Source: Candidatus Binataceae bacterium
Lineage (GTDB): Bacteria; Desulfobacterota; Binatia; Binatales; Binataceae
Direction of reading: 5' to 3'
Assembly: GCA_963722605.1 (NCBI GenBank)
Contig: CAVRNO010000004.1
Location: forward strand, 538,335-602,334
DNA length: 64,000 nt
Made by a program: the position numbers and the translations under genes. Positions 5,180-52,498 of the stretch are shown piece by piece (within the stretch, counting starts at the first letter, position 1; every line of letters starts with the position of its first letter). The notes beneath the pieces are model-generated. The model saw only the letters and a list, made by a program, of their open reading frames with translations, made no database searches and was not told the origin of the DNA.

Positions 5180-5184
5180 ACGCC

Positions 5185-6065: not shown

Positions 6066-6134
6066 ACACCTGTTGAAACAACCATGAAAGCCATTTCCGT
6101 AATCAAAAGACCTGTGATAACTCCAAGATTGGCG

Positions 6135-6941: not shown

Positions 6942-6944
6942 GTA

Positions 6945-7361: not shown

Positions 7362-7532
7362 TTTAAACACCCCGCGATCGCCGGGGTCCTACGTTAGAAA
7401 GCGCACTTCTGAAATTCCCCCTATTTATTGGGAAACAGCAAAGCGCTAACATCTTCAAATCGGCGAACTCAACAACTTGTTTTCGCCATTCCAGCATGAT
7501 GTATCGCGACGCGAGAGAGTAGTGGAGCAGTA

Positions 7533-8354: not shown

Positions 8355-8725
8355 CGTGTCGTGACTGGCTCCTAGCAAACCGCTACGAAGACGTAGCTTT
8401 GTTAATCGATAACGCTATCGCCAAAATGGTAGCTCGGGGTAGCAAACAGCGGAGAAACTGGTGGGATATTTTGTCAGGTGCCGTCGATGGAAGGCCCTGC
8501 GTTCGCGAAGGCATCGAGTTTCCGGTGCTGCGTACAGCCCAAATCCGCCAGGGTAAACCAATCACCAAGAACGCGATTGCGAGGAACAATCACGAAAAAC
8601 CTCCAGAAATCGTGACGACCGGCCGCTGGATAAAAAAGAAGCTACCAATCCGCGCTCAACCCTTAGCAAACGATCGATCCAACCCGCAGAAATCGGAACA
8701 ACTGAAACGGAGACGCGTGTCCTAG
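8351..8725 (+). CDS. Hypothetical protein (124 aa)
   Basis: Translationally coupled to the upstream gene; basic C-terminus; no recognised domain. Confidence 0.45.
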   Translation: MTCRDWLLANRYEDVALLIDNAIAKMVARGSKQRRNWWDILSGAVDGRPCVREGIEFPVLRTAQIRQGKPITKNAIARNNHEKPPEIVTTGRWIKKKLPIRAQPLANDRSNPQKSEQLKRRRVS

Positions 8726-8749
8726 CACACTCCTGCGGATCGAAATCCA

Positions 8750-9382
8750 TTGACGGAGGGCAAAACGGTGCATCCGGACACACGAGAAGTGGCGCACCAC
8801 ATGCGAGAATTCGGTCTGACTATTCTCGGGCGGGCTACTTACGACGTTACTTTCTCCGAGATGACGAAGCCATTTGCGCATGCAATGGCTGTGGCGCATG
8901 CGGCGCACGGCGCAGAAATCGCCATCAAGGCGCGCATTGCGCAGGAGCACCCATTACTCTTGTTTAAGAGTCTCCCAAAATCAACCAACGCCGAAAACCA
9001 ACTGACGGTTGCGGAGCTGTTTGAGTACGGACGCACCATCGAGTTTCACGATCTTCCGGAGTCGCTCTGGGCTGCCACCGGCATTCGGATGGACGGCGTC
9101 GAAGAGTACCAGCGGTTCGGGAAACTTCGAAACACTATCATCCATTTCGCCGTTCCAGATCACGACTTTGCCTGTGAGACACTCAAGTTCTTGTTTCAAG
9201 TGATGGAACCGTTGGGGCATCGCTTCTGGGATACGTCCATCTTGCCGTACGCAAGTGAGTGGGATGAGGTCGCGGTCTCAGACGGTTATTTAGAAGAACG
9301 ACTCGTCGAATGCGGCATTGATATCACACCTGATTTGCGCGCTGCGCTCGACGCCGAAAAGCCCCAGCCCTATGCGCCCTAG
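8750..9382 (+). CDS. HEPN-like protein (210 aa)
   Basis: Contains GKLRNTIIHFAVP, i.e. the R-x4-H HEPN signature in its typical RN...H context; 25 nt downstream of the preceding gene. Confidence 0.45.
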   Translation: MTEGKTVHPDTREVAHHMREFGLTILGRATYDVTFSEMTKPFAHAMAVAHAAHGAEIAIKARIAQEHPLLLFKSLPKSTNAENQLTVAELFEYGRTIEFHDLPESLWAATGIRMDGVEEYQRFGKLRNTIIHFAVPDHDFACETLKFLFQVMEPLGHRFWDTSILPYASEWDEVAVSDGYLEERLVECGIDITPDLRAALDAEKPQPYAP

Positions 9383-9701
9383 TAATGAAACAACTTGCCC
9401 TCTGCTACTCCGGTATGAAAATGCCTGGCTCGAGGCTCGCAAAGACAATAAACCGTCCGCGTCGAAGACTTCGCGTATTCGAGCCGTCGAATCATTGTCA
9501 TGTCGATTTCGCTGAAGGATAATGTGATTTTGGAGGATCTTGCTGATCATCTGTAATGATCTTTTGTAATGATTTTTTTGACCGCCAAGCCGTCGAATGC
9601 AAATAGAGTAAAGGTTTATCCACAGGACGGGCTTGATTCGAGCGAATAATTAGCGAACACTGTAGAGAGAACTTTAGCCAAAACGCGCAAGGAGGAAGCT
9701 A

Positions 9702-9794
9702 ATGGTGCCAAATATCTTTTGCCGCAAGTCGAGTTTCCTGATAAAAGATGCAGACAGTTCGTCAACCTTTGAGCGGAGGAGGAGGAGGAGCTGA
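9702..9794 (+). CDS. Possible 31-aa leader peptide (MVPNIFCRKSSFLIKDADSSSTFERRRRRS)
   Basis: Strong RBS AAGGAGG 6 nt upstream of the ATG; the stop abuts the next ATG; the ORF ends in five Arg codons (AGG x4, AGC). Confidence 0.25.
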   Translation: MVPNIFCRKSSFLIKDADSSSTFERRRRRS

Positions 9795-9816
9795 GATGGG
9801 TCGCGAAAACAACAAG

Positions 9817-10050
9817 ATGAAAGCCACCGATCCCGCGTCCGGGAGGGGCCTGCGGCGGGCAGCTAGGCTGAAGGCAAACATAGCGGATCGAACTACGTTC
9901 GAAGTGATGGGAGCTGCTCAAGGAGGCTGGCTGCGCAGTTACAACGGTCCTGGTCACGGGACAGCCCTACCCGGAAGTTCTGCTAAACGGCACCTACTAC
10001 CGAGGCATCGACGAAATCCGAGCCGGAGTAGCCGAGCTCAGAAGCCAGTA
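9817..10050 (+). CDS. Small DUF433-like ORF requiring a 1-nt frameshift near 9905
   Basis: N-terminal frame MKATDPASGRGLRRAARLKANIADRTTFEV, then the +1 frame ELLKEAGCAVTTVLVTGQPYPEVLLNGTYYRGIDEIRAGVAELRSQ*. The fused product resembles DUF433 (DP..G.P.i.GTRi.v..vl.ll..G....ile.YP.l..edI.aal.ya). It ends just before a strong terminator. Confidence 0.3.
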
Positions 10051-10094
10051 GGAATATCGCTGGTCGCCGAAGCAGAATCCAAGAAATGCTCCAC

Positions 10095-10130
10095 GGGCGG
10101 GTCGACGAAGAGTCGACCCGCTTTTTTTGC
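10095..10130 (+). terminator. Rho-independent terminator
   Basis: CGGGTCGAC-gaaga-GTCGACCCG: a 9-bp GC-rich stem followed by a T7 run (10122-10128). Confidence 0.6.
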
Positions 10131-10212
10131 TCGAAAATATGGACAACCAGCAGTCATTTCCGATACACAATTGGTTCCAGATACTTGATCTCATTTACGC
10201 TCCGCCGACGAC

Positions 10213-12873
10213 ATGAGCAAAGATTACATCATAGTTTGCGCCCCGGCAGGCACATCTCTTACTGAAGCAGTAAACAAGATACGCGACGCCCTGGGCGGAA
10301 CGCCCGCCGTGGAAACTGCGGACGTCGAATGGGAACTCCGCCATCTCTCCGCAACGCCCGCCGACCTGCTAAAGGCGGGGCGGAAGGTCGAGTCTAACAA
10401 GATAACAATGCACGATGTCACATTCTACCTGCCTCGCGAGAATGTCATCAACCTAGCAAACATGGGATTACTCAATGCACTGAAGAAACTTGCGGATTCA
10501 GATAAGCCTACTCTGGTCCTATCGTGTCATCTCACCTATTTCGGGAGTAAACGCTTTGAGTTTTATACCGGGATAGACCCAACGCTTCTTTCCGCACAGC
10601 TAAAACCAACGCGCCTTCTGTTGCTCATCGACGATATCTATGACATGTATATGCGTTTGAGCACCAATGTCGAACCCTTCTTTAGTTTAGAGAGCGCGAT
10701 GCGTTCTACTCTTGCGACTATTCAAAAAGAGGAGGAGATAGAGCTAGACAAACTAGAAGACGAGGACTTGATAACTCTTTGTCTTGCCGAGAAGCTTGGG
10801 ATGATGACACATTTGCTTTCGTGGAGACATCTTGAGACGGTCGTCGCTGAAGGTGTAGCTCGCCAGATCGGCTGTCCGTTCATGGTGTATGGTACGAAGC
10901 AAGCAATTGCGGCTGCAGCCAGCTGGTTGAGGAGCCTTCAACCGATTCAAGTGTACGCATCGCATCCTATCTCTAGAGTGCGTCGAGAATTTCGAAAAAG
11001 CGGTGATTGGGGAGAGCTCCCAGAACAAATCTTTCGCTTCCAGCGTCTTTTATTGAAAGATAATGTCGTCGTCCTGATGCCGACAGCAATTGATGAACGG
11101 CGTATCAAGCGTGGAGACGGCGGGCCGCTGCAGCGCATGCACGTAGAACTAGAGGCGCGCTGGCCATCTCCCAAACAGGCGGAGGCCTCGTTACTTCTCT
11201 ATACGCCTCCACCCGGGGATAACGACTGGGAACACACCAGGATACTTCGCTACGAAACTTGGGACCGCAAAAGAAAACTTCTTCAACCGGTCGGCACCAC
11301 GACGGTGAAAGTCGACCAGAAAGCAAATGTACTCTTACGAGAGTTTGAACGGCAATGCGAGAGAGCACTCGCGTCTAGAGACTATTTGCTCGTCTCTACA
11401 GCCAGGACCATCGTGGTATTTCGCCCTTTCATGGAAGTGCCTTCAGAACCGCGCGAAGGATTGTCTCGGGCGCTTAGTCAAGAGCTGGGACTCTGGGAGC
11501 TGATCGCCAAGTCGCATCCACCCCAAAAAGATAGTGATTTGACCGCTACTCCGAAGGCGTTATTCATTCATTTTAAGAAAGACGTCGACAGCTGGCGAGA
11601 GTACTATAATTCGGGCGAGCCACGGTCTGTCAGATTATATCAAGAGAGGGAAAGAGTCGTTGAACTGATCGCGGAGCCTCACTCTTGGACGTTAAAGCTC
11701 GCTCGGGAACTCCTGGAAGGTTTGGAGGAACGCAAGGAGAATTACTTCTCAGAAGGAAGTGTGCCGAAGTCGAAAGCCGACCAAGTACGACGGGAGTTGC
11801 CGACGCTTGTGGCGCAGGCGCACGAGGAATGGGAGAACTATCAACTTACCGGTGCGGTCCTCAAGTATTTCCGCTTGACACCGACAGACGAGGTGTTCGT
11901 TCAACGCGAACAAGTTCATCTTATCGTTGCAAAAGATATGGACGAGGTGGAACAAAGACAGCGCGAGATTACAGATTTTCTCGCCAGCGGCCTTAAACCG
12001 CCGCCGCTTGGAATCCTCGCACTTAAGGCTCTCCAGTCCTTCGGCGATACCGTCTCTCTGAAAACGACGCGAATCGTTCGCAACTACTACCGTTATTCCC
12101 CGGAAGCTCGGGAAACGCTCAGGTATTGGCGAAATCAGATAGAGAATCCTCTTCGAGACAAGAAGATACCCTGTACCAATTTCCTAATGTGGGGTGAGTC
12201 CGCCTGGGGGAAAACCTCTTTCATCGAGGAGATCGCAGAGGACCTGAAGGTGCTCGGCGTCAAGTCGAAGATTCTCAATGTCGCAAACTTAAAAAACAAG
12301 GAGGTTGACCTCAAACAAGAGCTCGCCGAGATCGACGCGACACCCGAGCCGATAATATGTTTAATTGATGAGATAACCACACCTCGCGCCGAATGGCCGT
12401 TGAACACATTGTTTCCCTTCCTACTTCCGTCCAAGCAATATCCTCACCGTCGGGTCGTCTTCGTAGTGGCAGGCAGCCGCGGTAAAAGTCTTGAAGAGCT
12501 TACGGGAGAAATTAAGGAGCTTTGCCCCAAGCAGCCGAGCGACCTGTTAAATCGCACCCCATATCAATTTGGCTTTCCTCAACCTCAACTCGAAGACTCT
12601 GTTTTGATTTTCACTTCGAAGGTCAAGTTGGCCTTTCCGAGTGTCGACCGAATCGAGAGAGCTTGTCTATTGTATGTGCTTACGGAAAAGCGGACTGGTC
12701 ATCTAATACACGCTTTGGTGCTCGGCCTTGAGTCTAAACTGTCACCTGCGCCGACAACTGTTCATTTGGACGACGTGCTTCCGGTCGCAAGTCCCGATCG
12801 TCTTAAATTTCTATCTCAATACCGGAGCCAGATTGATCAACTCTCTGACAGCTGCGTCCAGATTGAATCGTAA
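10213..12873 (+). CDS. Large uncharacterised protein (886 aa) with a C-terminal P-loop NTPase domain
   Basis: Uninterrupted ORF. Walker A LMWGESAWGKTSF and Walker B PIICLIDEITTP lie near residues 650-720; no motif was recognised in the ~600-aa N-terminal region. It sits immediately upstream of the integrase. Confidence 0.6.
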   Translation: MSKDYIIVCAPAGTSLTEAVNKIRDALGGTPAVETADVEWELRHLSATPADLLKAGRKVESNKITMHDVTFYLPRENVINLANMGLLNALKKLADSDKPTLVLSCHLTYFGSKRFEFYTGIDPTLLSAQLKPTRLLLLIDDIYDMYMRLSTNVEPFFSLESAMRSTLATIQKEEEIELDKLEDEDLITLCLAEKLGMMTHLLSWRHLETVVAEGVARQIGCPFMVYGTKQAIAAAASWLRSLQPIQVYASHPISRVRREFRKSGDWGELPEQIFRFQRLLLKDNVVVLMPTAIDERRIKRGDGGPLQRMHVELEARWPSPKQAEASLLLYTPPPGDNDWEHTRILRYETWDRKRKLLQPVGTTTVKVDQKANVLLREFERQCERALASRDYLLVSTARTIVVFRPFMEVPSEPREGLSRALSQELGLWELIAKSHPPQKDSDLTATPKALFIHFKKDVDSWREYYNSGEPRSVRLYQERERVVELIAEPHSWTLKLARELLEGLEERKENYFSEGSVPKSKADQVRRELPTLVAQAHEEWENYQLTGAVLKYFRLTPTDEVFVQREQVHLIVAKDMDEVEQRQREITDFLASGLKPPPLGILALKALQSFGDTVSLKTTRIVRNYYRYSPEARETLRYWRNQIENPLRDKKIPCTNFLMWGESAWGKTSFIEEIAEDLKVLGVKSKILNVANLKNKEVDLKQELAEIDATPEPIICLIDEITTPRAEWPLNTLFPFLLPSKQYPHRRVVFVVAGSRGKSLEELTGEIKELCPKQPSDLLNRTPYQFGFPQPQLEDSVLIFTSKVKLAFPSVDRIERACLLYVLTEKRTGHLIHALVLGLESKLSPAPTTVHLDDVLPVASPDRLKFLSQYRSQIDQLSDSCVQIES

Positions 12874-12908
12874 CCCATAGCCTGGACTTTTTTCACAGCC
12901 TACACGTA

Positions 12909-13979
12909 TTGTCACAAGATGCTACAATTAGTCTGAGACATAATCGCCCTTATGTTGCAGACAACCGGTCTGGAGCGGGGGGAGCGGTTCCGAAATACAT
13001 GGCCAATCGTGATCTCGTTCCCGCAGATAATCAGCAACATAATGTTCCGAAGCTCCTTTCGGAAGGCAAACACAGTCTCCGGGCGCTCGCTCGCGCGTAC
13101 TTCGTAACCGAGGTTGCCGGCCAGGCACCATCGACGATCGACGCGAAGCGACGCGACCTCACACGATTCTTTCTCTTCTACGCAAAACTTTACGGCCACG
13201 ATCATCCGGAGGAGTGGTACGCATCCGTCACGCGCGAATTCTTGCGACAGACCGCACGCGAGGGAGTTGCGGAAGCGACCCTCGCGCGCACGTATGCAAG
13301 CGTCCGGCATTTCGCGCGATGGATTCATTTCAAAGTCCAGGCATTTCCGCTCGGCTGCCCAACGGACGGCGTCAGGCCTCCTCGCGAACCTGAGCCGCAA
13401 TGGAAGGGACTCTCGCGGGCCGATGAACTCAGGCTCCTCGCAGCCGCCCAGACCCTTCGCATCCGACCAGGGCGGGGGACGAACCAAGGATTGCGAGACC
13501 ACGCCGCGATTGCCGTGCTCTTGGGCTCTGGGCTCCGCGTCTCCGAACTCTTGAATCTCAACTGCGGCCAATACACCGGCCGAGGGTTTCAAAAGCTTCT
13601 CGCCAAAGGCGGACGCATTCGCGATTTCGTTCCGGTGAAGAACGACGCGCGCCAAGTGCTGGAGGAATGGCTCGCCGTCCGCGCCGGCGCACCGGCAGAC
13701 CCAATTTTTCCCACGCGGACCGGAGCTCGCCTATCACGAATGCAATTTTTCAAGGCGCTGCGGCGAGTCGCCGATCAAGCGAACGCGCATCGGAAAGACG
13801 GGGAGCGCCTCACGGTCTCGCCGCACGTGCTTCGGCACACGTTTCTCCGAAAGCTCGCTGAAGAGAAGGGCGTGCAGTACGCGAAGGAAGCGTCCGGTCA
13901 CCGGAGCGACCGCTACATCTGGCGATACGTGAAACCGAATCACGACAGCTTGGCTGACGCGATCGATTCACTGGATTAG
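12909..13979 (+). CDS. Tyrosine recombinase / phage-type integrase
   Basis: Catalytic-region motifs: GSGLRVSELLNLN (R box), HVLRHTFLRKL (H-x-x-R) and SGHRSDRYIWRYV (catalytic Tyr region). An alternative start at 12999 is possible. Confidence 0.85.
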   Translation: MSQDATISLRHNRPYVADNRSGAGGAVPKYMANRDLVPADNQQHNVPKLLSEGKHSLRALARAYFVTEVAGQAPSTIDAKRRDLTRFFLFYAKLYGHDHPEEWYASVTREFLRQTAREGVAEATLARTYASVRHFARWIHFKVQAFPLGCPTDGVRPPREPEPQWKGLSRADELRLLAAAQTLRIRPGRGTNQGLRDHAAIAVLLGSGLRVSELLNLNCGQYTGRGFQKLLAKGGRIRDFVPVKNDARQVLEEWLAVRAGAPADPIFPTRTGARLSRMQFFKALRRVADQANAHRKDGERLTVSPHVLRHTFLRKLAEEKGVQYAKEASGHRSDRYIWRYVKPNHDSLADAIDSLD

Positions 13980-14308
13980 AGGCGGTCGTTTCATGCTGGT
14001 CTCGGCCGCGTTCGAATCGGGCTAGGCTACTGTTCGGTCGGTTATCCCCATCCATTTCACAGGGACCTTATGTCTGCGTGTTATCGTTAGGTTTATGGAG
14101 AGGGACAATCTACAACGATTTGCGGTGTGAAGCTTGACACCCGTTGTGCACCGCGCAGTCTCGCCGGATCCTTCTACGTAAAGCCGTCCTAAAACTACAA
14201 CCAGCCCTCGGCCTAAAACTGCGGGCTCCCCAGAGGGACCAGGTCACTCCTTCCGGGGAGCCTACGCTCCACAGCCCTTTAACATTCCCGCCAAATAAGG
14301 AGTCAGAA

Positions 14309-15025
14309 ATGGAAGGATTATTCGCGCACGTTGATTCTCACAAACTTACCCGCAACGACTTGAAGCTCATCCCTGCCCCCGAGGGCACGGATACCTTCAG
14401 GCCCATCGCTCACGCCGAGCTCGTCGATTCCGTCCACGAGACGCTCTCATTCCGCCACATCAACGTGGTCAAGGACGAGTACGCCGTCTCCGAGGATGGC
14501 ATGAAGCTCTTCGGGGTCATGGAACTCGAGACGGCGATGAACGGCTTCCGCTTCGCTCTCGGCCTTCGCAACGCGAACAATCGCAGTATGCGCCTGGGGC
14601 TTGTCGTCGGCATCAAAGTCTTCTGCTGCGACAACATGGCCTTCTACGGGGACTTCCAACCCGTGCTCGCCAAGCATTCGAAGCACTTCAATCTCCACAA
14701 CGCGCTTGCCGTGGGCATCGACCAGATGCAGCGCAACTTCAAGCCCATGGCCGATCAAGTCGAAGCATGGAGAGCGGCGCAGATCGAGGACGATGACGCC
14801 CGGCGCATCATCTACCGCGCGTTCATCGAGGACCAGCTCGACGCGCCGAAGCATCTCGCGAAGGTCGTCCACGCAAACTACTTCAACCCTCAAATTGAAG
14901 AGTTCACGCCCCGGACGAAGTGGAGCTTGCAAAACGCTTTCACCGGCGCATTCAAACAGCTCGACCCGATACCGATGTATCGCGCAACCGCGAGCTTGGG
15001 AGAGTTCTTTCAGGCCTCGTTGTAA
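14309..15025 (+). CDS. DUF932-like protein typical of conjugative elements
   Basis: AAGGAG RBS 8 nt upstream of the ATG at 14309. Segments such as LSFRHINVVKDEYAVSEDGMKLFGVMELE and GLRNANNRSMRLGLVVGIKVFCCDNMAF resemble the DUF932 family found on ICEs and plasmids; family assignment is from memory. Confidence 0.5.
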   Translation: MEGLFAHVDSHKLTRNDLKLIPAPEGTDTFRPIAHAELVDSVHETLSFRHINVVKDEYAVSEDGMKLFGVMELETAMNGFRFALGLRNANNRSMRLGLVVGIKVFCCDNMAFYGDFQPVLAKHSKHFNLHNALAVGIDQMQRNFKPMADQVEAWRAAQIEDDDARRIIYRAFIEDQLDAPKHLAKVVHANYFNPQIEEFTPRTKWSLQNAFTGAFKQLDPIPMYRATASLGEFFQASL

Positions 15026-15275
15026 GCGGAGTTATGGATATTCGCAGTTTGTGCGGCGAGCCGATCCTCTCCAAGTCCCACGTCACACAGCACGAGCAAG
15101 ACGGCGAGCATCACTATCACGAGTACGGCATTTACCACTCCACCCTCTGCTATTAGACCGCCACTCAGAGCCGCCGCACATTCTGTGGATAACTCAGCTT
15201 GCCGAAATGACTATCTGTCGTAGGGTGAAATGAGCATGACTCGGTATTGAACTGAGTCTTGAAAGGAGAATCAAA

Positions 15276-15548
15276 ATGGCTAAAGGAAGGAAACCGGACT
15301 TCCGGGTGATGTTCCCAGTCACCGCAACGGTAGGGAACGGGAACAATCAGGAAAAGAAGACGCGCTGGCATCGTCATGGCGCGGCGTGGAGGCGCGAGGG
15401 CGGCAGTATCGGGATAGTGCTCGATGTGGGCGTGAAACTTGAGTATCCGGCCGGCGCGCAGCTTGTGCTCGTCGAGGAAAAGGAATTTGAGAGACGGGTC
15501 CAGGAAGGGCGGGCGGCCGGCGCGGATGAGGAAGATATCCCATTCTAA
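15276..15548 (+). CDS. Hypothetical small protein (90 aa)
   Basis: RBS AAAGGAGAA 7 nt upstream of the ATG; no recognised domain. Confidence 0.4.
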   Translation: MAKGRKPDFRVMFPVTATVGNGNNQEKKTRWHRHGAAWRREGGSIGIVLDVGVKLEYPAGAQLVLVEEKEFERRVQEGRAAGADEEDIPF

Positions 15549-15582
15549 CCCCGAGGCGCGCCGAGCCTCCCAGGGAACCATC

Positions 15583-16158
15583 ATGGGCAATTTGCTCAAA
15601 TTCGATGAGATCAAACGGATCCCTGTTGTGCAGGTGCTGGCGCGCTACAGGGTCAAGCTCCACTTCAACGGGACAGGAGCGAGTGCGCTCTGTCCACTCA
15701 AAACGCACCGAGCTGGCGAGAAAGAGCGAACCTTCAGCGTCCACCTCGACCGCAACTACTGGCAGTGCTTCTCGGCCTCGTGCAATTCGCAGAATGGGGG
15801 CCGGCGCGGCGGCGACGTAATCGATCTAGTTGCGCTCATGGAAGGTTGCCGAATGAGAGAAGCTGCCGAGAAGCTCGCCGAGTGGTACGGAATAAAAAGC
15901 GCCCCTCACATGGAGGAGCGCCGCGTGCCACAGGAGCACGCATCAATCAAGGGCTATTCAGATTCTAAGCCCGCGAGCGATAGCGTCAAGGCGAAGTACA
16001 CGGCGCACGTGGAGGAATGGTATCGAGAGCTGACCACGCGACGACAGGGAGAGGATGACGCCGGTTTTGAAAAGCGAGTGCTCACGGGTATCAAGAGCAA
16101 ACTGATTGAGAGTTATCGGAACGGAAAGGCGGCTCAGTCTGCTCGGCCAGATCGGTAG
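15583..16158 (+). CDS. CHC2 zinc-finger primase-like protein (DnaG-type zinc-binding domain)
   Basis: ALCPLKTHRAGEKERTFSVHLDRNYWQCFSASC...GGDVIDLV has the C-H-C-C zinc-ribbon spacing of the primase N-terminal domain; internal ATG at 15583 (MGNLLKF). Confidence 0.6.
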   Translation: MGNLLKFDEIKRIPVVQVLARYRVKLHFNGTGASALCPLKTHRAGEKERTFSVHLDRNYWQCFSASCNSQNGGRRGGDVIDLVALMEGCRMREAAEKLAEWYGIKSAPHMEERRVPQEHASIKGYSDSKPASDSVKAKYTAHVEEWYRELTTRRQGEDDAGFEKRVLTGIKSKLIESYRNGKAAQSARPDR

Positions 16159-43750: not shown

Positions 43751-44944
43751 TTGAAAATGGACTTTTCGCTGACCCCAAAAACCGAACAATTGCGCAAGCG
43801 CGTCTCCGACTTCATGGACCAGCACGTTTATCCCATCGAAAAGGAAGTTCAGCGCGAGATGGGCGAGAGCGGGCATACCGAGCCCCAATGCCTCAAGGAC
43901 GTCCGCAAAAAAGCCAAGGCCGAGGGCCTCTGGAACCTATTTCTGCCCGGCAAAGACGGCGCCGGCCTCAAGAACCACGAGTACGCGCCGCTCTGCGAGC
44001 TGATGGGCCGCAGCCAGATTGGCGCGCGCGCGTTCAACTGCATGGCGCCCGATACCGGCAACATGGAAATCCTCTCCGAGTTCGGCACTCCCGACCAGAA
44101 AAAGAAATGGCTCCAGCCCTGCCTCGACGGCGAGATGCGCACCTGCTTCTCGATGACCGAGCCTGATACCGCCGGCTCCGATCCGACCCAGCTCAAGTCC
44201 CGCGCCGTTCGCGAGGGCGACTACTACGTGATCAACGGCCACAAGTGGTTCACCTCCAACGCGATCGGCTCGAGCTTCGCGATCGCGATGGTCGTCACCG
44301 ACCCCGACGCGCCGCCGCATCGCCGCGCCAGCCAGATAATCGTTCCGACCGACACTCCCGGATTCAACCTGGTTCGCCCCGTGCCGGTGATGGGCCACAC
44401 CGGCGGCGGCGGGCATTGCGAGATAATCTACAAGGACTGCCGCGTGCCGGTGACCAACGTGCTCGGCGAGGAAGGCGGCGGCTTCGCAATCTCGCAGGCG
44501 CGGCTCGGCCCCGGACGCATCCACCACTGCATGCGGATGATCGGCGTCGCCGAGCGAGGGCTCGAGCTGATGTGCAAGCGGGCGAACACCCGCTTCACCC
44601 ACGGCAGCTTGCTCGCCGAAAAGGCCAACATCCAGGAGTGGATCGCCAACTCCCGAATCGAGATCGACTCGTGCCGCCTGATGGTGATGCATGCGGCGTG
44701 GAAGATGGACACCGTCGGCAAGCGCGAAGCGCGCAACGAAATCTCGATGATCAAAGTGATGTGCGCGAACATGGTGATGATCGTCCTCGATCGCGCCATC
44801 CAGGTGTTCGGCGCGGCCGGCGTCAGCGACGACATCCCGATCGCGCGGATGTGGCGCGACAGCCGCTCGCTGCGAATCGCCGACGGCCCCGACGAAGTCC
44901 ATCGCATGACCATCGCGCGGCGCGAAGTGCGCAAGTACAAGTGA
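43751..44944 (+). CDS. Acyl-CoA dehydrogenase
   Basis: Full ACAD architecture with the C-terminal catalytic region (...RIADGPDEVH). Confidence 0.9.
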   Translation: MKMDFSLTPKTEQLRKRVSDFMDQHVYPIEKEVQREMGESGHTEPQCLKDVRKKAKAEGLWNLFLPGKDGAGLKNHEYAPLCELMGRSQIGARAFNCMAPDTGNMEILSEFGTPDQKKKWLQPCLDGEMRTCFSMTEPDTAGSDPTQLKSRAVREGDYYVINGHKWFTSNAIGSSFAIAMVVTDPDAPPHRRASQIIVPTDTPGFNLVRPVPVMGHTGGGGHCEIIYKDCRVPVTNVLGEEGGGFAISQARLGPGRIHHCMRMIGVAERGLELMCKRANTRFTHGSLLAEKANIQEWIANSRIEIDSCRLMVMHAAWKMDTVGKREARNEISMIKVMCANMVMIVLDRAIQVFGAAGVSDDIPIARMWRDSRSLRIADGPDEVHRMTIARREVRKYK

Positions 44945-45029: not shown

Positions 45030-46124
45030 ATGGCTGAAGCGGCAAAAATCGTCCCCGAATATGGCGACGTCCGCGACGAGGAGCAGCTCGACTGGGTCAA
45101 GCTCGCCGCCTTCTTGCGCGGCAAGATTCCCGGCGCCGACGCCCCCCTCACCGTCCAGCAGTTCCGCGGCGGCTCGTCCAATCTGACCTACCTGCTGCGC
45201 TTCGGCGACCGCGAATGGGTCGTGCGACGGCCGCCATTCGGGCCGCTGCCCGTCGGCGGGCACGACATGGGCCGCGAGTACAAGGTGCTCTCGCGGCTGT
45301 GGGAGGTCTTCAAGCCGGCGCCGCGCGCGATGCTCTACAGCGACGACGTGTCGATCATCGGCGCTCCATTTTTCGTGATGGAACGGCGCACCGGGATCGT
45401 CATCAAGAATCGCGAACCGCTGCCCCCGGAACTCGGCAACGAACCGGCGACCTTTCGCGCAATCTCGGAGGGTTTCATCGACACGCTGGCCGATTTGCAC
45501 GAAGTCGATTACGCGGCGATCGGACTTGCCTCGCTCGGCAAGCCCGACGGATTCCTGAAGCGCCAGGTCACCGGATGGATGGGGCGATGGGAGAAGGCCA
45601 AGACCCGCGAAGTGCCGCTGATGGAGAAACTCGGCGCCTGGTTTCTCGACAACCTCCCCGTGTCGCCCCCGCCGGTGCTCGTGCACAACGACTTCTACCT
45701 GCACAACATCATGCTCGGCGCGGTCAATCACGGTGAGGTGGTCGGTGTGTTCGACTGGGAAATGTCCACCATCGGCGATCCGCTGGTCGATCTCGGCATC
45801 GCGATTGGCTATTGGCGCGACAAGAGCGACCCGCCCGAACTGCTGGTGACTTCCTACGGCGAGGCGCACACGCTGCGCCCCGGCTTCATGACCCGCGACG
45901 AGCTGGTGCATCGCTATTCGACCCGCACCGGCCGCGACGTGAGCGGCATCCCGTTTTACTGGGCGTGGGCGCATTGGAAGACTGCGACCGTCGTCGAGCA
46001 AATCTACGTCCGCTACGTGCGCGGGCAGACCACCGATCCGCGCTTCGCCCTGATGGGTCCGATGGCGCCGGCGCTCGCGCACGCCGCCGCGCAGGTAGCC
46101 TCCCGCCTCGGCTTCAAGGAGTAA
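45030..46124 (+). CDS. Phosphotransferase-family (APH-like) protein associated with acyl-CoA dehydrogenase
   Basis: APH/CHK kinase motifs LVHNDFYLHNIM and DWEMSTIGDP. Confidence 0.8.
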   Translation: MAEAAKIVPEYGDVRDEEQLDWVKLAAFLRGKIPGADAPLTVQQFRGGSSNLTYLLRFGDREWVVRRPPFGPLPVGGHDMGREYKVLSRLWEVFKPAPRAMLYSDDVSIIGAPFFVMERRTGIVIKNREPLPPELGNEPATFRAISEGFIDTLADLHEVDYAAIGLASLGKPDGFLKRQVTGWMGRWEKAKTREVPLMEKLGAWFLDNLPVSPPPVLVHNDFYLHNIMLGAVNHGEVVGVFDWEMSTIGDPLVDLGIAIGYWRDKSDPPELLVTSYGEAHTLRPGFMTRDELVHRYSTRTGRDVSGIPFYWAWAHWKTATVVEQIYVRYVRGQTTDPRFALMGPMAPALAHAAAQVASRLGFKE

Positions 46125-46179
46125 CACTTCGGCGCGTCTCAGGAGCCCACGCCGCGCGCGGTGGCGGACCGGTAATCCG

Positions 46180-47172
46180 CTATCGTGACCGCCGGGCTGG
46201 TGCGCCCGACCATTTCCGGATTTCGTTCCAGCTCCAACTCTCGAGGTTCGGCACCTCGCCGCCGTCAATGAATACCTCGCCAAGATTTTTCGCACGATGT
46301 GAAAATTGCTGCGCAAACGGAGTCAAGTGGTCTTCAAGATATTTGTCGAAGAAATCGATGTGAACGGCATCAATCGCGGAGTGCCTAAAGGGGGTGTCGC
46401 CGCTGAGGGGAGCCACGTTTGGTTCCTGCCGAACTATCCTTACCCAAGGAGTATAGACGGGCTCTGCGACGCGATCCGGGCCTTCCACCAGAATCATAGG
46501 GGCATCGAGCACCGCTACCGATAAGGCCGCTCTTGCGAAGACGCCACTGTTGTCCGGGCTGTGAGCGTGACCGTAGACCGATCTGGCATGATCAGCGGCC
46601 TTCGACAGAGGAAGAACGAGACTGTTGAAAGGGTTAGCGCCTGAGAGCTCGACTTTGTTGCCATTCGGTCTGGCCTGACTGAACGAGGCCGCTCTATCTG
46701 TCCCTAGCGACACGAAAGGCAGCTCGCATAGTCCCAGAGCCCGAGAAGCTGAGACGAGTTCGTGCCGCTCGGGATTCTTTGACGAGTTCTTTTCCCAAAG
46801 CGAAACCCCTCCATATGGCAGGCCGAAAACGGAAGGGAACCAGAGCATGTCTGGACGAGTCACCATTCGGAAGAAAATGTAGGGGTGCTCCGACTTTTTG
46901 CATTCGATCATTAGGACAATGCCTGGTATCACTTCCGCTCTTAGATCGAATCTCCCTTCCGACGATGCAAGTACGTCTAGGCTTCTTGTGTCGCCGCTGT
47001 CCCGATCTGAATATCCCCACTCCTCGGTGACGTTAAATCCGCGCTTCACCAACCGATCAGCAACCACGCTCTGGAGAGGGTATCCAGATTTCTCGATGCC
47101 ATTGATGAGATCGGCTTCTCTGATTCCTGTGGGGATACGGTTTCGTTCCGGGTTGCTGGGCTTTTGCTTCAT
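46180..47172 (-). CDS. Hypothetical protein with a PD-(D/E)xK-like nuclease motif (lower-GC islet)
   Basis: SLDVLASSEGRFDLRAEVIPGIVLMIECKKS gives a D...E-x-K arrangement; by eye the G+C is lower than in flanking genes. Confidence 0.45.
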   Translation of the reverse strand: MKQKPSNPERNRIPTGIREADLINGIEKSGYPLQSVVADRLVKRGFNVTEEWGYSDRDSGDTRSLDVLASSEGRFDLRAEVIPGIVLMIECKKSEHPYIFFRMVTRPDMLWFPSVFGLPYGGVSLWEKNSSKNPERHELVSASRALGLCELPFVSLGTDRAASFSQARPNGNKVELSGANPFNSLVLPLSKAADHARSVYGHAHSPDNSGVFARAALSVAVLDAPMILVEGPDRVAEPVYTPWVRIVRQEPNVAPLSGDTPFRHSAIDAVHIDFFDKYLEDHLTPFAQQFSHRAKNLGEVFIDGGEVPNLESWSWNEIRKWSGAPARRSR

Positions 47173-47292
47173 CTGGTTTAGACCCCAATGGTTGGTTCGG
47201 TAACCTCAACATTGTGAACTACGCGAAGATTAGAGCACAATATTCACCACGGTAAATCTCGGGAAACGACCCGCAAAAGGACGCTCAACAAA

Positions 47293-48335
47293 ATGAGCAG
47301 AGTATTCGTTCTGGGTGCTGGCGCATCCGCCTTCGCTGGGTATCCCCTCGCTCTGGATCTGTGGCGATTTATTCGCGACTCGGACCCGGCAGAGTCTCAA
47401 GCTCGCGAAGCGCACGCGGCAGTTATGAAGGTCATAGAACCTATCGTGCGAACGAACCTTCTTCCGCAAGAAGATGGCCGTCCGAATCTGGAGAACCTCT
47501 TTACACAGTTGGACCTTGGCCACATGGGGATCGGCCCGGAGGAACTGAGACTCGGAGATTGGCCCCTAATCCGAATGAAAATTGTGCGTCTAATAGTCGA
47601 AAATTTCCGATGGCAAGAATGGCGATTCCAAGGGCAGATAGTTCATGCCCGTTACCAGTCGGGTCTTGAGGTAGATCGCACCTTAGCGTTGTCCGTCCTC
47701 GATGCATGGGCGGATACGCTCAAACCGGGGGATACAATACTGAGTTTCAATTGGGATCTTTTTGCACGAATCGGCTTTGTGGCGCGCCGGCAAATGGCAT
47801 TTTGCAGACGGCTATGGCTTTCAATGTAGAGACGCGCCAGATTCTACTCACTCACCCGTCAAGATTCTGAAACTGCACGGATCCGTCAAATTGGGCCCAA
47901 GAATCAGACATGGACATTGCAGCCGAAATTGAGAACAAGAGAGATTTCTTCGAAGGCGCGGCTGACGATCGAAACACATTTCTGAAACGACGCGGTGCTT
48001 GGAACATGGGGCGACAGTTGATCGTTCCGAGCTACATCAAGGACCCGAGCGCTAATCGTCTTCTCGTCCGTATATGGAACCAAGCGGAAGCGGCATTACG
48101 CCAAGCCGATGAGATAATCGTAATCGGTTTCAGTCTCAACAAGGCTGACTCAGCCGCACGAAGGCTGTTCGCAACAGCTTTGGACGGAAGGTCGCCGACG
48201 CCTCGTCTTGTGGTTGTCTCCCCGGAGCAGCCTGAATGGGATATGTTCTGCTACTACAACCTGCAGATCAAACAAGAACGAATCAGGAAACGGTTTGAAG
48301 ACTGGATCACAACAAGACCGATTTCCGACGATTGA
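47293..48335 (+). pseudogene. SIR2-like (SIR2_2 / DHS-like NAD-binding) gene disrupted by several frameshifts
   Basis: N-terminus VFVLGAGASAFAGYPLALDLWRFI (SIR2_2 start pattern). KILKLHGSV (LHGS motif) is in another frame at ~47860-47890. The C-terminal ORF contains IIVIGFSLNKADS. At least three single-base shifts are needed between 47800 and 47900. Confidence 0.5.
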
Positions 48336-48355
48336 GGCGTTCGTACGCTGTAAGC

Positions 48356-48664
48356 ATGGCTCGCGCAAAGAAAATACCGCCGCTTCACCCCGGCGAGGTC
48401 CTGTACGAGGACTTCATCGTTCCGACCGGCGTCAGCATCCATCAGCTCGCGATGGATTTGCGGGTGCCGGCCAATCGGATCGCGGAAATCGTGAAGGGCC
48501 AGCGCGCGATATCCGCAGACACCGCGCTTCGCCTCGCTCGTTATCTCGGTACGTCGGCGGAATTCTGGCTGGGATTGCAAAGCGACTACGAACTCGAAAA
48601 AGCCAAAGACGAGCTGGCGCCCAAAATCGAGCGCGAGGTCCGTCCCCGCAAGCGCGCGGCGTGA
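48356..48664 (+). CDS. HigA-like XRE-family HTH protein
   Basis: KIPPLHPGEVLYEDFIVPTGVSIHQLAMDLRVPANRIAEIVKGQRAISADTALRLARYLGTSAEFWLGLQSDYELEKA is the canonical antidote HTH. No cognate toxin ORF is evident upstream. Confidence 0.65.
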   Translation: MARAKKIPPLHPGEVLYEDFIVPTGVSIHQLAMDLRVPANRIAEIVKGQRAISADTALRLARYLGTSAEFWLGLQSDYELEKAKDELAPKIEREVRPRKRAA

Positions 48665-48764
48665 CGCGCGCCGCGCCTGCCGTCCCCTTTTCACCCAGCC
48701 GGAACTAGGCTATCCAAGGTACAACGGCGGCTGACAATTGCCCCGGCCCGGAGGTTTCCCAGTC

Positions 48765-49634
48765 TTGCACGCCATCAACTACGAAGCCCCAACCACGCTC
48801 GATCAGGCGATCGGCATCCTCAAAGCCCACGGCGAAAACGCCCGCCCGTTCTGCGGCGGTACCGACCTCATCATCCAATTGCGCGCCGGAGTCCGCCGCA
48901 CCGAGCATCTCGTTGACATCAAGAAAATCAAGGAGCTGCAAACTCTCTCCTTCGATGCGAAGAAGGGATTGCGGCTCGGCGCGGCCGTGCCTTGCATCGA
49001 CGTCGGCGAGAGCAAGGTGATGCGGCGTCATTACCCCGGCCTGACCGAGGCGGCCAATCTCATCGGCTCGATTCAGATTCGCAACCGCGCCTCGGTGGGC
49101 GGCAATCTGTGCAATGGATCTCCCGCCGCCGACACCACCCCTGCCCTGATTGCGCTCGGCGCGCGCGCCCGAATCGCCGGCCCCAAGGGCGAGCGCGAGG
49201 TGCCGGTCGAGGATTTCGTCGTATCGCCCGGACGCACCGTGCTCAAGCCCGGCGAGTTGCTGGTCGAACTCCTGGTTCCGGCCCCCGCGCCCCATTCGAG
49301 CGACGCCTATCTTCGTTTCATCCCGCGCAACGAGATGGATATCGCCGTCGTCGGCGTGGGCGCCGCGCTTACCCTCGACGGCGACAAGGTCAAGGCCGCG
49401 CGGATCGCGCTGGGCGCCGTTGCGCCGACTCCGATCTTCGCAAGCAAAGCCTCCGCCGCGCTCATTGGCAAGAAACTCGGCGACGCCGCGCTCGAGGCCG
49501 CCGGACGTGCGGCGAGCGCCGCCTGTTCGCCGATCGACGACATGCGCGGAACCGCGGAATTTCGGCTTCACATCGCCGCGGTGCTCACCCGCCGCGTGCT
49601 CTCAATCGCCGCCGAACGCGCGAAAAAGAACTGA
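48765..49634 (+). CDS. FAD-binding (medium) subunit of a xanthine-dehydrogenase / CO-dehydrogenase-family molybdoenzyme
   Basis: CoxM/XdhB-like FAD-binding domain (..YEAPTTLDQAIGILKAHGENARPFCGGTDL..). Probable TTG start at 48765, with GGAGG 10 nt upstream. Confidence 0.8.
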   Translation: MHAINYEAPTTLDQAIGILKAHGENARPFCGGTDLIIQLRAGVRRTEHLVDIKKIKELQTLSFDAKKGLRLGAAVPCIDVGESKVMRRHYPGLTEAANLIGSIQIRNRASVGGNLCNGSPAADTTPALIALGARARIAGPKGEREVPVEDFVVSPGRTVLKPGELLVELLVPAPAPHSSDAYLRFIPRNEMDIAVVGVGAALTLDGDKVKAARIALGAVAPTPIFASKASAALIGKKLGDAALEAAGRAASAACSPIDDMRGTAEFRLHIAAVLTRRVLSIAAERAKKN

Positions 49635-49668
49635 ATCACGACGACTCAACCCAACGGCAAATATCACA

Positions 49669-50172
49669 ATGTCAAAAAAGACTCTGGTAGAAGCGACGAT
49701 TAACGGCGAAACCGTCGAGTTTCTGTGCGAGCCGCGCCAAAGCCTGCTCGAAACCCTGCGCGACGTGCTCGAACTCACCGGCTCCAAGGAAGGATGCCTC
49801 ACCGGCGATTGCGGCGCTTGCACCGTGCTGGTCGACGGCCGCCCGGTCTGCTCGTGCCTGATGCTTGGCGTCGAAGCGCAAGGCAGGAACATCGTGACCG
49901 TCGAAGGGCTCGCCATCAACGGCGTGCTTAACATTTTGCAGAAAAAGTTTCTCGAGCACGCGGCCTTGCAGTGCGGCATCTGCACGCCCGGATTCCTGAT
50001 CTCGGCCAAGTCGCTGCTCGATCGCAATCCGAAACCGACTGAGCACGAAGTCCGCTACGCGCTGGCCGGCAATCTGTGCCGATGCACCGGTTACGACAAG
50101 ATCGTCAAGGCGGTGCTCGACGCGGCTGCCGATATTCGCTCCCAGCACGAAGGCAAAGCGGCCGCACGATGA
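49669..50172 (+). CDS. (2Fe-2S)-binding small subunit of the molybdoenzyme
   Basis: CLTGDCGACTV and CGICTPGF...CRCTGY cluster motifs. ATG at 49669; the track ORF starting at 49150 is an upstream over-extension. Confidence 0.85.
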   Translation: MSKKTLVEATINGETVEFLCEPRQSLLETLRDVLELTGSKEGCLTGDCGACTVLVDGRPVCSCLMLGVEAQGRNIVTVEGLAINGVLNILQKKFLEHAALQCGICTPGFLISAKSLLDRNPKPTEHEVRYALAGNLCRCTGYDKIVKAVLDAAADIRSQHEGKAAAR

Positions 50173-50230
50173 GACCATCGGATGACTGACCGGACCACCG
50201 ATACGCGCTGGCGATTCGAGAGGTAAGGGC

Positions 50231-52498
50231 ATGGCGGAATCAACCACCACAGGCGATTTCAAAGTCATCGGCACGCGTCCGATTCGGCCCGATGGCGTCG
50301 ACAAAGTGATCGGCCGCGCCAAGTTCGGCGCCGACTACGCATTCCCCGGGATGCTCCACGGCAAGGTGCTGCGCAGCCCGCACGCCCACGCGATTATCAA
50401 ATCGATCAAATTCGACAAGGCGCTCAAGCTCCCCGGCGTCAAGGCTATCGTCACCGCCAAGGATCTCCCGGATATCGAGAACAAGCTCGAACAGGCCGGC
50501 GAGATGATGATCAATCCAAGGCACCTGTCGATGAACATCCTCGCGCGCGACAAGGTCCTGTACGACGGCCATGCGATCGCCGCCGTCGCCGCGACCAGCC
50601 CGCATATCGCCGAGGAAGCGCTGCGCCTCATCGAAGTCGATTACGAAGTGCTGCCGCCCGTGATGACCGTCGATGCCGCCATGAAGCCGGGCGCCCCGAT
50701 TCTCCACCAGGACCTGCGCAACCATGAGGAAGGCGACAAGCCGACCAACGTCGCGCAGCACTACCAGTTCAAACGCGGCGACCTCGAGGCGGGCTTCAAG
50801 GCTGCCGACTATGTGATCGAGCGCGAATTCAACACCGCGATGGTGCATCAGGGATACATCGAGCCGCACAACGCCGTCGGCATCTACAACTCCGACGGAC
50901 AGGCGACGATTTACTGCTCGACCCAGGGCTCCTTCGACGTGCGCTCGCTCAGCGCGCAGGTGTTGGGGATGCCGGTCGGGAAAATCAAAGTCGTGCCGGC
51001 CGAAATCGGCGGCGGCTTCGGCGGCAAAACCACCATCTACCTCGAGCCGCTCTCGGTGCTGCTCTCCAAAAAGACCGGCGCCCCCGTCAAGCTCGTCATG
51101 TCGCGCTCGGAAGTGCTCCGCGCGAGCGGGCCGACCCCCGGCTCGAAGATCAAAGTGAAGATGGGCGCGACCAAGGACGGCACGCTCGTCGCCGCCGAAA
51201 TCTGGATGGCGTACGAGGCCGGCGGATTCCCGGGCTCGATGGTGGCGGCCGGCGCGATGTGCATCATCGCGCCTTACACCTTCGAGAATTTTCAAATCGA
51301 CGCCTACGACGTAGTGGTCAATCGGCCCAAGACCAACGCCTATCGCGCGCCCGGCGCAACCAACGCCGCGTTCGCCTCCGAGACTGTGATCGACGAACTG
51401 GCCGAAAAGTGCAAAATCGATCCGCTCGACTTCCGGATCAAGAACGGCGTCAAGGAAGGCTCGGCCCAGATCATGGGCCCTCCCTTCAAGCGCATCGGCT
51501 TTATCCAGACCTGCGAAGCGATCAAGAACAGCCCGCATTACAACTCGAAACTGACCGGCAAGTTCCGCGGACGCGGCGTCGCCTCGGGCTTCTGGTTCAA
51601 CGCCGGGATGCAGTCCTCGGCTACCGTGAATATCCACACCGACGGCACCGCCAGCGTCGTCACCGGCTCCCCGGATATCGGCGGCTCGCGCGCGTCGATG
51701 GCGATGATCACCGCCGAAGTGCTCGGACTCCCCGTGACTGACGTGCGGCCGCTCACCGCCGACACCGATTCGATCGGCCATACCGACGTCTCCGCCGGCA
51801 GCCGCGTCACTTTTGCAACCGGGATGGCGGTGTACGAGGCGGCCAAGGACGCCGTGCGCCAGTTGATCGAGCGCGCCGCCAAGGTCTGGGAGAAAAAGCC
51901 CGACGATGTCGAATTCCGCGACGGGATGGTCCATCTAAAGGGCGACGGCGTGCCCCCCATGTCGATCAAGCAGCTCGCACCACGCCTGGCCCGCACCGGC
52001 GGTCCGATCACCGGCCGCGCCAGCGTCAATGCGCGCGGCGTCGGCCCCGGATTTGCCACCACCCTCGTCGATGTCGAGGTCGATCCCGACACCGGCAAGG
52101 TGCAAGTGCTGCGATGCACCGTCGCGCAAGACGCCGGCAAGGCGATTCATCCGGCCTACGTCGAAGGACAAATGCAGGGCGGAACGGTGCAGGGACTCGG
52201 TTGGGCGCTCAACGAAGAATACTTCTATGACGACAAGGGCACGCTGCGTAATACCGGCTTCCTCGACTACCGCATCCCGACCTGCCTCGACTTGCCGATG
52301 ATCGAGACGGTCATCGTCGAGGAAGCAAACCCCGGCCATCCGCTAGGCGTGCGCGGCGTCGGCGAGGCGTCGATCGTGCCGGCGGTGGCGGCGGTCGCCA
52401 ATGCGATCTATCACGCGGTGGGCGTCCGGATGACCGAGACGCCGATGTCCCCGCCCAGGTTGCTCAAGGCGATCCTGAAGCATCGCGGCGCCAACTAA
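50231..52498 (+). CDS. Molybdopterin-binding large subunit (xanthine dehydrogenase / aldehyde oxidase / CoxL family)
   Basis: 755 aa with the conserved MoCo-binding architecture; M-S-L gene order. Confidence 0.85.
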   Translation: MAESTTTGDFKVIGTRPIRPDGVDKVIGRAKFGADYAFPGMLHGKVLRSPHAHAIIKSIKFDKALKLPGVKAIVTAKDLPDIENKLEQAGEMMINPRHLSMNILARDKVLYDGHAIAAVAATSPHIAEEALRLIEVDYEVLPPVMTVDAAMKPGAPILHQDLRNHEEGDKPTNVAQHYQFKRGDLEAGFKAADYVIEREFNTAMVHQGYIEPHNAVGIYNSDGQATIYCSTQGSFDVRSLSAQVLGMPVGKIKVVPAEIGGGFGGKTTIYLEPLSVLLSKKTGAPVKLVMSRSEVLRASGPTPGSKIKVKMGATKDGTLVAAEIWMAYEAGGFPGSMVAAGAMCIIAPYTFENFQIDAYDVVVNRPKTNAYRAPGATNAAFASETVIDELAEKCKIDPLDFRIKNGVKEGSAQIMGPPFKRIGFIQTCEAIKNSPHYNSKLTGKFRGRGVASGFWFNAGMQSSATVNIHTDGTASVVTGSPDIGGSRASMAMITAEVLGLPVTDVRPLTADTDSIGHTDVSAGSRVTFATGMAVYEAAKDAVRQLIERAAKVWEKKPDDVEFRDGMVHLKGDGVPPMSIKQLAPRLARTGGPITGRASVNARGVGPGFATTLVDVEVDPDTGKVQVLRCTVAQDAGKAIHPAYVEGQMQGGTVQGLGWALNEEYFYDDKGTLRNTGFLDYRIPTCLDLPMIETVIVEEANPGHPLGVRGVGEASIVPAVAAVANAIYHAVGVRMTETPMSPPRLLKAILKHRGAN

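Follow-up and report, generated by a model that had tools for sequence, protein, structure and literature searches.

Why would an antitoxin gene persist with no toxin beside it, directly downstream of a gene whose reading frame is broken? The question is raised by a locus in a 64,000-nucleotide (nt) stretch of DNA from a Candidatus Binataceae bacterium (GenBank assembly GCA_963722605.1, contig CAVRNO010000004.1, positions 538,335 to 602,334), the whole of which is called the window below. Here, a gene for a 330-amino-acid (330-aa) protein with a PD-(D/E)xK-like domain and a divergently oriented, frameshifted SIR2-like gene stand ahead of higA, the antitoxin half of a higBA toxin-antitoxin (TA) module. 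A sequence-only reading of the window had joined the three genes into one decayed, or misassembled, defence islet. We find the region better explained by a cassette that occupies, as an alternative allele, the position of the toxin gene in a higBA locus than by a decayed three-gene islet. It is likely that the chromosomal higBA locus of a Candidatus Binatus-like bacterium has a variable slot and that the window shows one of its alleles, in which higB has been replaced.

The slot between the phosphotransferase gene and higA

The related contigs, designated below by L and a number, share a backbone in which genes for a methyltransferase, an ACAD protein and an APH-family phosphotransferase are followed by the slot, by higA and by the FAD, Fer2 and Mo-enzyme genes (Table 1). 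Alignment of the window to L181, its nearest HigB-bearing relative (91-92% nt identity), ends at position 46123, at the APH stop codon, and restarts at 48352, which is 4 nt ahead of the higA ATG; the same boundaries were seen in comparisons with L167-L170. The interval from APH to higA measures 2,228 nt in the window versus 399 nt, higB included, in L181. Between approximately 46200 and 48400 the G+C (GC) content is 0.50-0.58, as opposed to 0.62-0.69 on both sides; taken over 46141-48355 it is 0.538, with 0.645 and 0.638 in the flanks and 0.618 in higA. The lower-GC islet of about 2.5 kb that the sequence-only reading described thus holds as regards the drop itself (0.538 versus ~0.64), but not as regards HigA, which lies outside the segment and in the conserved backbone. 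Terminal repeats, an integrase and target duplications were sought around the cassette, and none was convincing; a single 12-nt GC-rich inverted pair nearby is likely due to chance.

Table 1. Features of the locus, in window coordinates
Feature	Position	Strand	Basis
ACAD gene, upstream of APH	43751-44944	.	Pfam
APH-family phosphotransferase gene, left backbone flank	45030..46124	+	Pfam; syntenic at 85-92% nt identity in L167, L171 and L181
Low-GC segment read as an allelic cassette, 2.2 kb, in the higB slot (APH stop to higA start)	46125..48351	.	Comparison with L181; GC content
Intact 330-aa gene: N-terminal PD-(D/E)xK-type nuclease domain (residues ~20-105) and unmatched ~220-aa C-terminal domain	46180..47172	-	
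Divergent intergenic region, 330-aa gene/SIR2	47173..47292	.	
SIR2_2-type gene, 346 aa once repaired, in three reading-frame pieces	47293..48335	+	Open reading frames; alignment to L001
Frameshift 1: T5 run, T4 in intact relatives; just after the FNWD motif	47759..47763	+	Alignment to L001; directly 3' of GGATC
Frameshift 2: extra C within the KLHGSVNW motif (GTCAAA versus GTAAA in relatives)	47887	+	Alignment to L001; 4 nt 3' of GGATC
higA, 102 aa, antitoxin half of the higBA module	48356..48664	+	TIGR02607
Xanthine-dehydrogenase-family enzyme (FAD-binding, 2Fe-2S and Mo-cofactor subunits), right backbone flank	48738..52498	+	Pfam; syntenic in every related locus

Three kinds of occupant were found in the slot. 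In nine related contigs (L168-170 and L181-186), it holds a 92-aa HigB (PF05015) immediately upstream of the orthologous higA. In L167 (3198-3926), the occupant is a 242-aa protein whose N-terminal portion carries an HTH_3 domain; the C-terminal part contains cysteine and has no annotation. The pairing of the 330-aa gene with SIR2 fills it in the window, L001, L163 (identical to L172), L171 and L173; besides the window, these represent no fewer than three independent relatives. The GC content is 0.54-0.55 in each of the three kinds of insert and 0.63-0.645 in the flanks.

The observation that a HigA-like antitoxin stands here without its toxin is borne out, in that no HigB-like sequence or remnant was found anywhere in the 64-kb window. 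HigA itself scores 104.2 bits against TIGR02607 (equivalog cut-off, 47.7) and 32.8 bits against Pfam HTH_3, with marginal matches to the PADLOC helix-turn-helix (HTH) models, and its close homologues number in the thousands, with several source-named Candidatus Binatus sp. among them. It is 85-94% identical in amino acid sequence to the HigA of the relatives whatever gene lies upstream. Because its GC content is 0.62, its nt identity to the relatives is comparable to that of the flanks, and its ratio of nonsynonymous to synonymous divergence (dN/dS) is 0.07-0.14 regardless of the upstream gene, higA is counted as part of the backbone. These comparisons indicate a conserved backbone gene under purifying selection and not a decaying orphan; HigA looks orphaned since the cassette took the place of higB.

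The distribution of the occupants does not follow that of the backbone. In a distance tree built from higA and the FAD-subunit gene, the window is 8.5% from the HigB-bearing L181-186 and 14.7% from the cassette-bearing L171, L163 and L173, which cluster with L167-170. Because the slot occupants are discordant with the backbone tree, they point to an exchange of cassettes between lineages, or to an old polymorphism kept by recombination. The backbone of L167 is only 3% diverged from that of the HigB-bearing L168-170, and the swap that placed the 242-aa HTH protein there is therefore recent.

The usual state of this lineage is APH, higB, higA and the Mo-enzyme operon, in that order. We propose that a 2.2-kb cassette has taken the place of higB and its promoter region, with ends that fall precisely at the stop codon of APH and at the start codon of higA. 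The incoming segment would have brought two unrelated accessory genes, one for the 330-aa PD-(D/E)xK protein and one for a stand-alone 346-aa SIR2, the exchange presumably proceeding by homologous recombination in the conserved flanks. Since SIR2 occupies the place of HigB, 20 nt upstream of higA (48335 to 48356; 19 nt in L171), higA would most likely be transcribed from the SIR2 promoter; no plus-strand terminator-like site was found between the two genes. Within the divergent intergenic region, a block of ~33 nt at 47211-47243 (ATTGTG-N19-CACAAT) recurs nearly unchanged at L171:4858-4892, where the encoded proteins are 75% identical, and is probably a promoter or operator.

The SIR2-like gene and its frameshifts

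Three frames, covering 47293-47829, 47762-47932 and 47910-48335, share the SIR2 coding sequence in the window. The sequence-only reading had counted several frameshifts in an SIR2_2-type gene; that the frame is disrupted was correct, but alignment to L001 shows exactly two breaks, both of them +1 insertions, 128 nt apart (Table 1). Deleting one T of the T5 run and the C at 47887 restores a single open reading frame (ORF) of 346 aa, whose product and the database protein P0001 differ by one residue (I/L, near the C terminus). Comparison with L001 also reveals a third indel of 1 nt, at 48338 (GGCGTT versus GGCGGTT), in the 20-nt spacer that separates SIR2 from higA.

Once repaired, the protein falls short of the thresholds of existing family models, narrowly or by far: 23.6 bits against Pfam SIR2_2 (PF13289; gathering cut-off, 24.5), although some homologues have precomputed PF13289 matches, and 24.3 bits against NCBIfam NF042942 (SIR2_antiphage; cut-off, 500), with weak and partial matches (E ~1e-6) to several PADLOC SIR2 models. 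Its family comprises at least 399 homologues of ~345 aa, all annotated as hypothetical. Among 43 family members there is no variation at H195, at N153 or at G8, A9, G10 and S12 of the GAGAS loop, and D155 is conserved in at least 90%; zinc-ribbon CxxC pairs are absent from the sequence. An AlphaFold 2 (AF2) model of the protein (mean predicted local distance difference test [pLDDT], 89.6; predicted template modelling score, 0.91) gave 47 Foldseek matches in the PDB at E<=1e-3, and all 50 of the 50 matches listed have the SIR2 fold. The SIR2 subunit of E. coli SIR2-HerA came first (E, 1.5e-8), followed by KomC, the SPARSA SIR2, ThsA and DSR2; the best PDB match by sequence is 8w9l. Judged from sequence and model, the gene is thus of the defence type, as the sequence-only reading had supposed, and not a housekeeping sirtuin. 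Because the GAGAS loop, N153/D155 and H195 are conserved and the fold is nearest to those of defence SIR2 proteins, the intact protein is most likely an NAD+-consuming toxic or abortive-infection effector.

Since the insertions sit between the FNWD and KLHGSVNW motifs, the N-terminal half and the catalytic histidine (H195) are in different reading frames, and the gene as sequenced here is predicted to be unable to yield a functional product. Intact versions do exist in relatives, as a comparison suggested by the sequence-only reading revealed: in L001, a Logan contig with 99.66% nt identity over 1,770 nt; in a Candidatus Binatus metagenome-assembled genome (MAG) (HEY9157447.1, 98% aa identity), next to a 330-aa gene that is 95% identical; and in L171, at 75% aa identity and a dN/dS of 0.105. 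As the gene is intact at these three distances (99.7% nt, 98% aa and 75% aa identity), the break in the window must have arisen very recently or else be an error of the local consensus, and the dN/dS of ~0.1 implies that the gene was under purifying selection until very recently. A programmed frameshift was ruled out, as the relatives encode the protein in one frame.

A real and very recent inactivation is somewhat the more probable of these outcomes. That the frameshifts are instead local errors of the assembly consensus, in which case the organism would have an intact SIR2 and a live cassette that is not decayed, is a serious contender at somewhat less than even chances. The window lies on a contig of 937,815 nt from a soil-type MAG, and this size, together with Flye-style 'contig_N' names in related records, suggests a long-read assembly. 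Over 1.77 kb the window differs from L001 by 3 substitutions and 3 indels, an unusually large share of indels for real divergence; one of the two sites is a homopolymer; and the gene is intact in every relative examined. Both sites moreover lie 1-5 nt 3' of GGATC (47754-47763 and 47879-47887), an arrangement with a chance of ~1.5% for GATC that fits a methylation-linked basecalling error. The proximity to GGATC may reflect such a motif-linked error in a long-read consensus, or it may be a coincidence. The rest of the window argues the other way. No other split gene was found in its 64 kb, the candidate pairs having turned out to consist of distinct genes (among them ParA/ParB/HTH_36 and two ABC permeases); in the alignment to L181 the reading frames of the flanking genes are undisturbed; 443 GATC sites show no visible damage; and the second insertion lies outside a homopolymer. 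The cassette also erodes in nature, as is seen from a mirror-image decay in L171 and L121, where SIR2 is intact and it is the 330-aa gene that is split (L171:3819-4821 and L121:426-1419, called as 201 plus 79 aa, the tblastn match breaking at residue 187/189).

Several points weigh against replacement of higB by a cassette that has since begun to decay. That HigB is the ancestral occupant rests on the canonical pairing of HigB with HigA and on its being the commonest state in a small, non-random sample of contigs. The synonymous divergence (dS) of SIR2 between the window and L171 is 1.46, versus ~0.46 in the flanks, which misfits a simple recent transfer between those lineages; the high value may reflect an old polymorphism or a weaker constraint on codon usage. 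The function of the SIR2 family, as an NADase and in toxicity, is itself deduced, with a Pfam SIR2_2 score just under the gathering threshold. The frameshifts, finally, may or may not be present in the organism, real inactivation being the somewhat favoured outcome and consensus error retaining a sizeable share.

Whether the neighbours form a system

All-versus-all clustering of neighbouring ORFs revealed no neighbour of the SIR2 family conserved in more than 6 of 64 loci, and in a Pfam census of 150 such ORFs the top family had only 4 members, with no partner apparent; overall, the 55-64 SIR2-family loci covered share no conserved neighbour. The genes encountered are a mixture that includes TA genes and the domains BrnT/CopG, PIN, ResIII/helicase, DNA methylase, integrase, NACHT and Cas3-like_C. 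The sequence-only reading had also taken the region for a defence islet; in a PADLOC-DB v2 search no system was complete at the locus, and only the weak partial SIR2 matches and marginal HTH matches were returned, with nothing for the 330-aa protein. Across ~60 SIR2-family loci, HigA adjoins SIR2 only in L001, L163 and L171-173, that is, in the syntenic Binatus clade. Decay is uncoupled as well, SIR2 being broken and the 330-aa gene intact in the window, with the reverse in L171 and L121. Because neither family has a constant partner, the association of HigA with SIR2 is limited to one clade and decay is uncoupled, the cassette is best read, at the level of sequence, as two independent accessory genes and not as a three-gene system. 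The grouping of all three genes into one islet accordingly had to be given up: HigA is what remains of higBA, and the SIR2 and 330-aa families mostly occur apart.

It is conceivable, though unlikely, that SIR2 and HigA form a new TA-like pair, in which HigA neutralizes or represses SIR2 as it formerly did HigB. NAD+-degrading toxins paired with HTH antitoxins exist, RES-Xre being an example. SIR2 sits in the exact position of the toxin, 20 nt upstream of higA and with no intervening plus-strand terminator-like site, and this bicistronic layout is kept in L171 and L163 at 75% aa identity. Partner swapping among type II TA modules is, furthermore, documented (PMC8832971, PMC10440598). However, HigA is 91% identical to copies partnered with HigB, with no sign of adaptation to a new partner, and remains intact beside the broken SIR2. 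In ~60 SIR2-family loci, no adjacent HigA was seen outside the syntenic clade; the third allele has a plain HTH protein in the slot; and a putative HigB-promoter inverted repeat present in L181 (CACGTA-N8-TACGTG) is absent upstream of SIR2. No precedent for a SIR2-HigA pair, or for a TA pair with a SIR2 toxin, was found in searches of the literature. HigA might control or neutralize SIR2, but the evidence leans against it.

Equally doubtful is a two-gene defence system in which the 330-aa protein, as sensor or nuclease, would act with SIR2 as the NADase effector. Like the window, L001, L171/L121 and the MAG encoding HEY9157447/8 retain the two genes as a divergent pair, and the surroundings of both families are variable and abound in genes of defence, TA or mobile elements. 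Most members of each family are nevertheless found apart from the other family: at 69-73% identity, the SIR2 homologues (L162, L082) lack the 330-aa gene, 330-aa homologues without SIR2 are found in L164-166 and L175-180, and those at 78-82% identity pair with a 263-aa protein instead, while remoter ones are solitary. The two genes also decay independently in the window and L171, and no such system is represented in PADLOC.

A broader proposal combines these ideas. In it, the higA of Binatus would be a promiscuous 'anchor' antitoxin or regulator fronted by varied effectors (HigB, a SIR2 NADase, an HTH fusion), SIR2-HigA would be an undescribed NAD+-depleting TA or abortive-infection module, and members of the two uncharacterized families, SIR2 and 330-aa, would each act in defence as a new kind of single-gene effector; we regard this as improbable. 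That the SIR2-like gene is a housekeeping sirtuin, i.e., a protein deacylase, can be set aside as very improbable: it has the general SIR2 fold, and CobB and SIRT2 are among the Foldseek matches at E ~1e-4 only, but defence SIR2s match better by 3-4 orders of magnitude, the CxxC zinc-ribbon pairs are missing, the distribution is patchy, the GC content is low, the slot is swappable and the gene is dispensable in the window genome.

The 330-aa gene has an intact ORF, and the assignment to a PD-(D/E)xK-like protein stands, with E51, D66, E90, C91 and K92 invariant among 40 homologues, the D66, E90 and K92 of the presumed active site included. In an AF2 model (pLDDT, 92.4), D66, E90 and K92 lie on strands E62-72 and E84-93, and the core alpha-beta-beta-beta-alpha-beta fold is present. 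Foldseek returned local matches only, over 64-80 residues, to the R2 RLE domain, AF1548, Hjc and Cas4 (probability, 0.98-0.99; E, 0.04-0.05), and a library of viral structures gave similar local matches, viral resolvases among them. No match was found in Pfam, NCBIfam, PADLOC, PHROGs or the sequences of the PDB, also when a family profile was run against PDB sequences and PHROGs, and the beta-rich C-terminal domain of ~220 aa had neither a structural nor a sequence match. The protein is a putative nuclease. Its family has at least 83 homologues, all unannotated. Both families are seen in contigs and MAGs from peat, soil and groundwater metagenomes, and the 330-aa family also in Streptomyces genomes.

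The neighbourhoods of the 330-aa homologues vary. Those at 78-82% identity have a conserved, unannotated 263-aa protein directly upstream, which is confined to that identity group, and the two may constitute an alternative two-gene module. The 263-aa protein (L164:4102-4893, L166:4069-4857, L165:2-166) is 83% identical between loci and has no Pfam match and a weak match to a PHROG of unknown function. Near the homologues in L166 (6408-10990) and L164 (1-3580) are genes for an AAA_15/AAA_21 ATPase, a ResIII protein and a helicase that combines AAA_11/AAA_12 with a nuclease domain (MTES_1575), together with a ThiF/Prok-E2_E/Multi_ubiq cluster; these neighbourhoods look like defence islands. Remoter homologues are solitary between housekeeping genes or are cargo of a Streptomyces integrative element. 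In Streptomyces canus (CP109012.2; L179:1-5029), a 36%-identical homologue adjoins RepSA, FtsK/SpoIIIE and GntR genes, a combination characteristic of integrative conjugative elements in actinomycetes; the family therefore moves as mobile-element cargo.

Elsewhere in the window, positions 3481-16155 encode ParA (AAA_31), ParB, an HTH_36 protein, DUF932 and a CHC2 zinc-finger (primase-type) protein, at a GC content below that of the second half of the window. This block looks like part of a plasmid or of an integrative conjugative element.

Comparison with known systems

If higB was indeed replaced by the cassette, the locus offers a concrete and datable case of how an 'orphan' antitoxin originates, its toxin half swapped for an unrelated cassette while the antitoxin is still selected. 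It also brings to light two sizeable families beyond the reach of any model library, namely, a stand-alone SIR2 with intact catalytic residues and a PD-(D/E)xK protein whose C-terminal domain is novel; either is a candidate for acting alone in defence or as a toxin. For annotation, the lesson is that the call of a 'decayed defence islet' requires relatives and read-level checks before it is trusted.

The PD-(D/E)xK nucleases Hjc, AF1548 and Cas4 and the R2 RLE domain share with the 330-aa protein the core fold and the invariant E51, D66 and E90-x-K92. They differ from it in that only ~80 of the 330 residues match, the beta-rich remainder of 220 aa being without counterpart, and in that no family model recognizes the protein.

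The defence SIR2 NADases (SIR2-HerA/Nezha, ThsA, DSR2, SPARSA and KomC) have the same SIR2 Rossmann fold as the SIR2 of the window. The likeness extends to the GAGxS loop, the Asn/Asp motif (FNWD here, TTNYD there), the catalytic histidine of KLHGS and the absence of a zinc ribbon, and 8uae, 8suw, 8w9l and 8wld are the best structural matches (E ~1e-8; TM ~0.5-0.58). In contrast, the window SIR2, a putative NADase, is only 14-20% identical to these proteins and falls below Pfam and NCBIfam thresholds. No HerA, TIR/ThsB, pAgo, STAND or other sensor or partner is conserved beside it, and its 346 aa hold no extra sensor domain such as the C-terminal domain of DSR.

With HigBA type II TA modules (PF05015/TIGR02607), the locus shares a full-scoring HigA whose same-position orthologues are preceded by HigB. 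It departs from them in that the toxin half and its promoter are missing from the window genome, where the cassette stands instead and HigA alone is kept.

Swapping of partners in TA networks, as charted by Panacea/NetFlax, is a documented principle (PMC8832971, PMC10440598). Neutralization of the new neighbours by HigA is unsupported here, and one of the occupants is an HTH protein and not an obvious toxin; SIR2 is unmentioned in the texts of both papers. What the locus has in common with partner swapping, and equally with the turnover of cassettes at defence hotspots, is a conserved antitoxin-type gene beside a position at which close relatives differ in carrying one or another of several unrelated genes, discordantly with the phylogeny. 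Seen against these systems, the finding is a modest one, mostly ordinary cassette swapping at a TA locus: a variant of known themes, together with two uncharacterized families.

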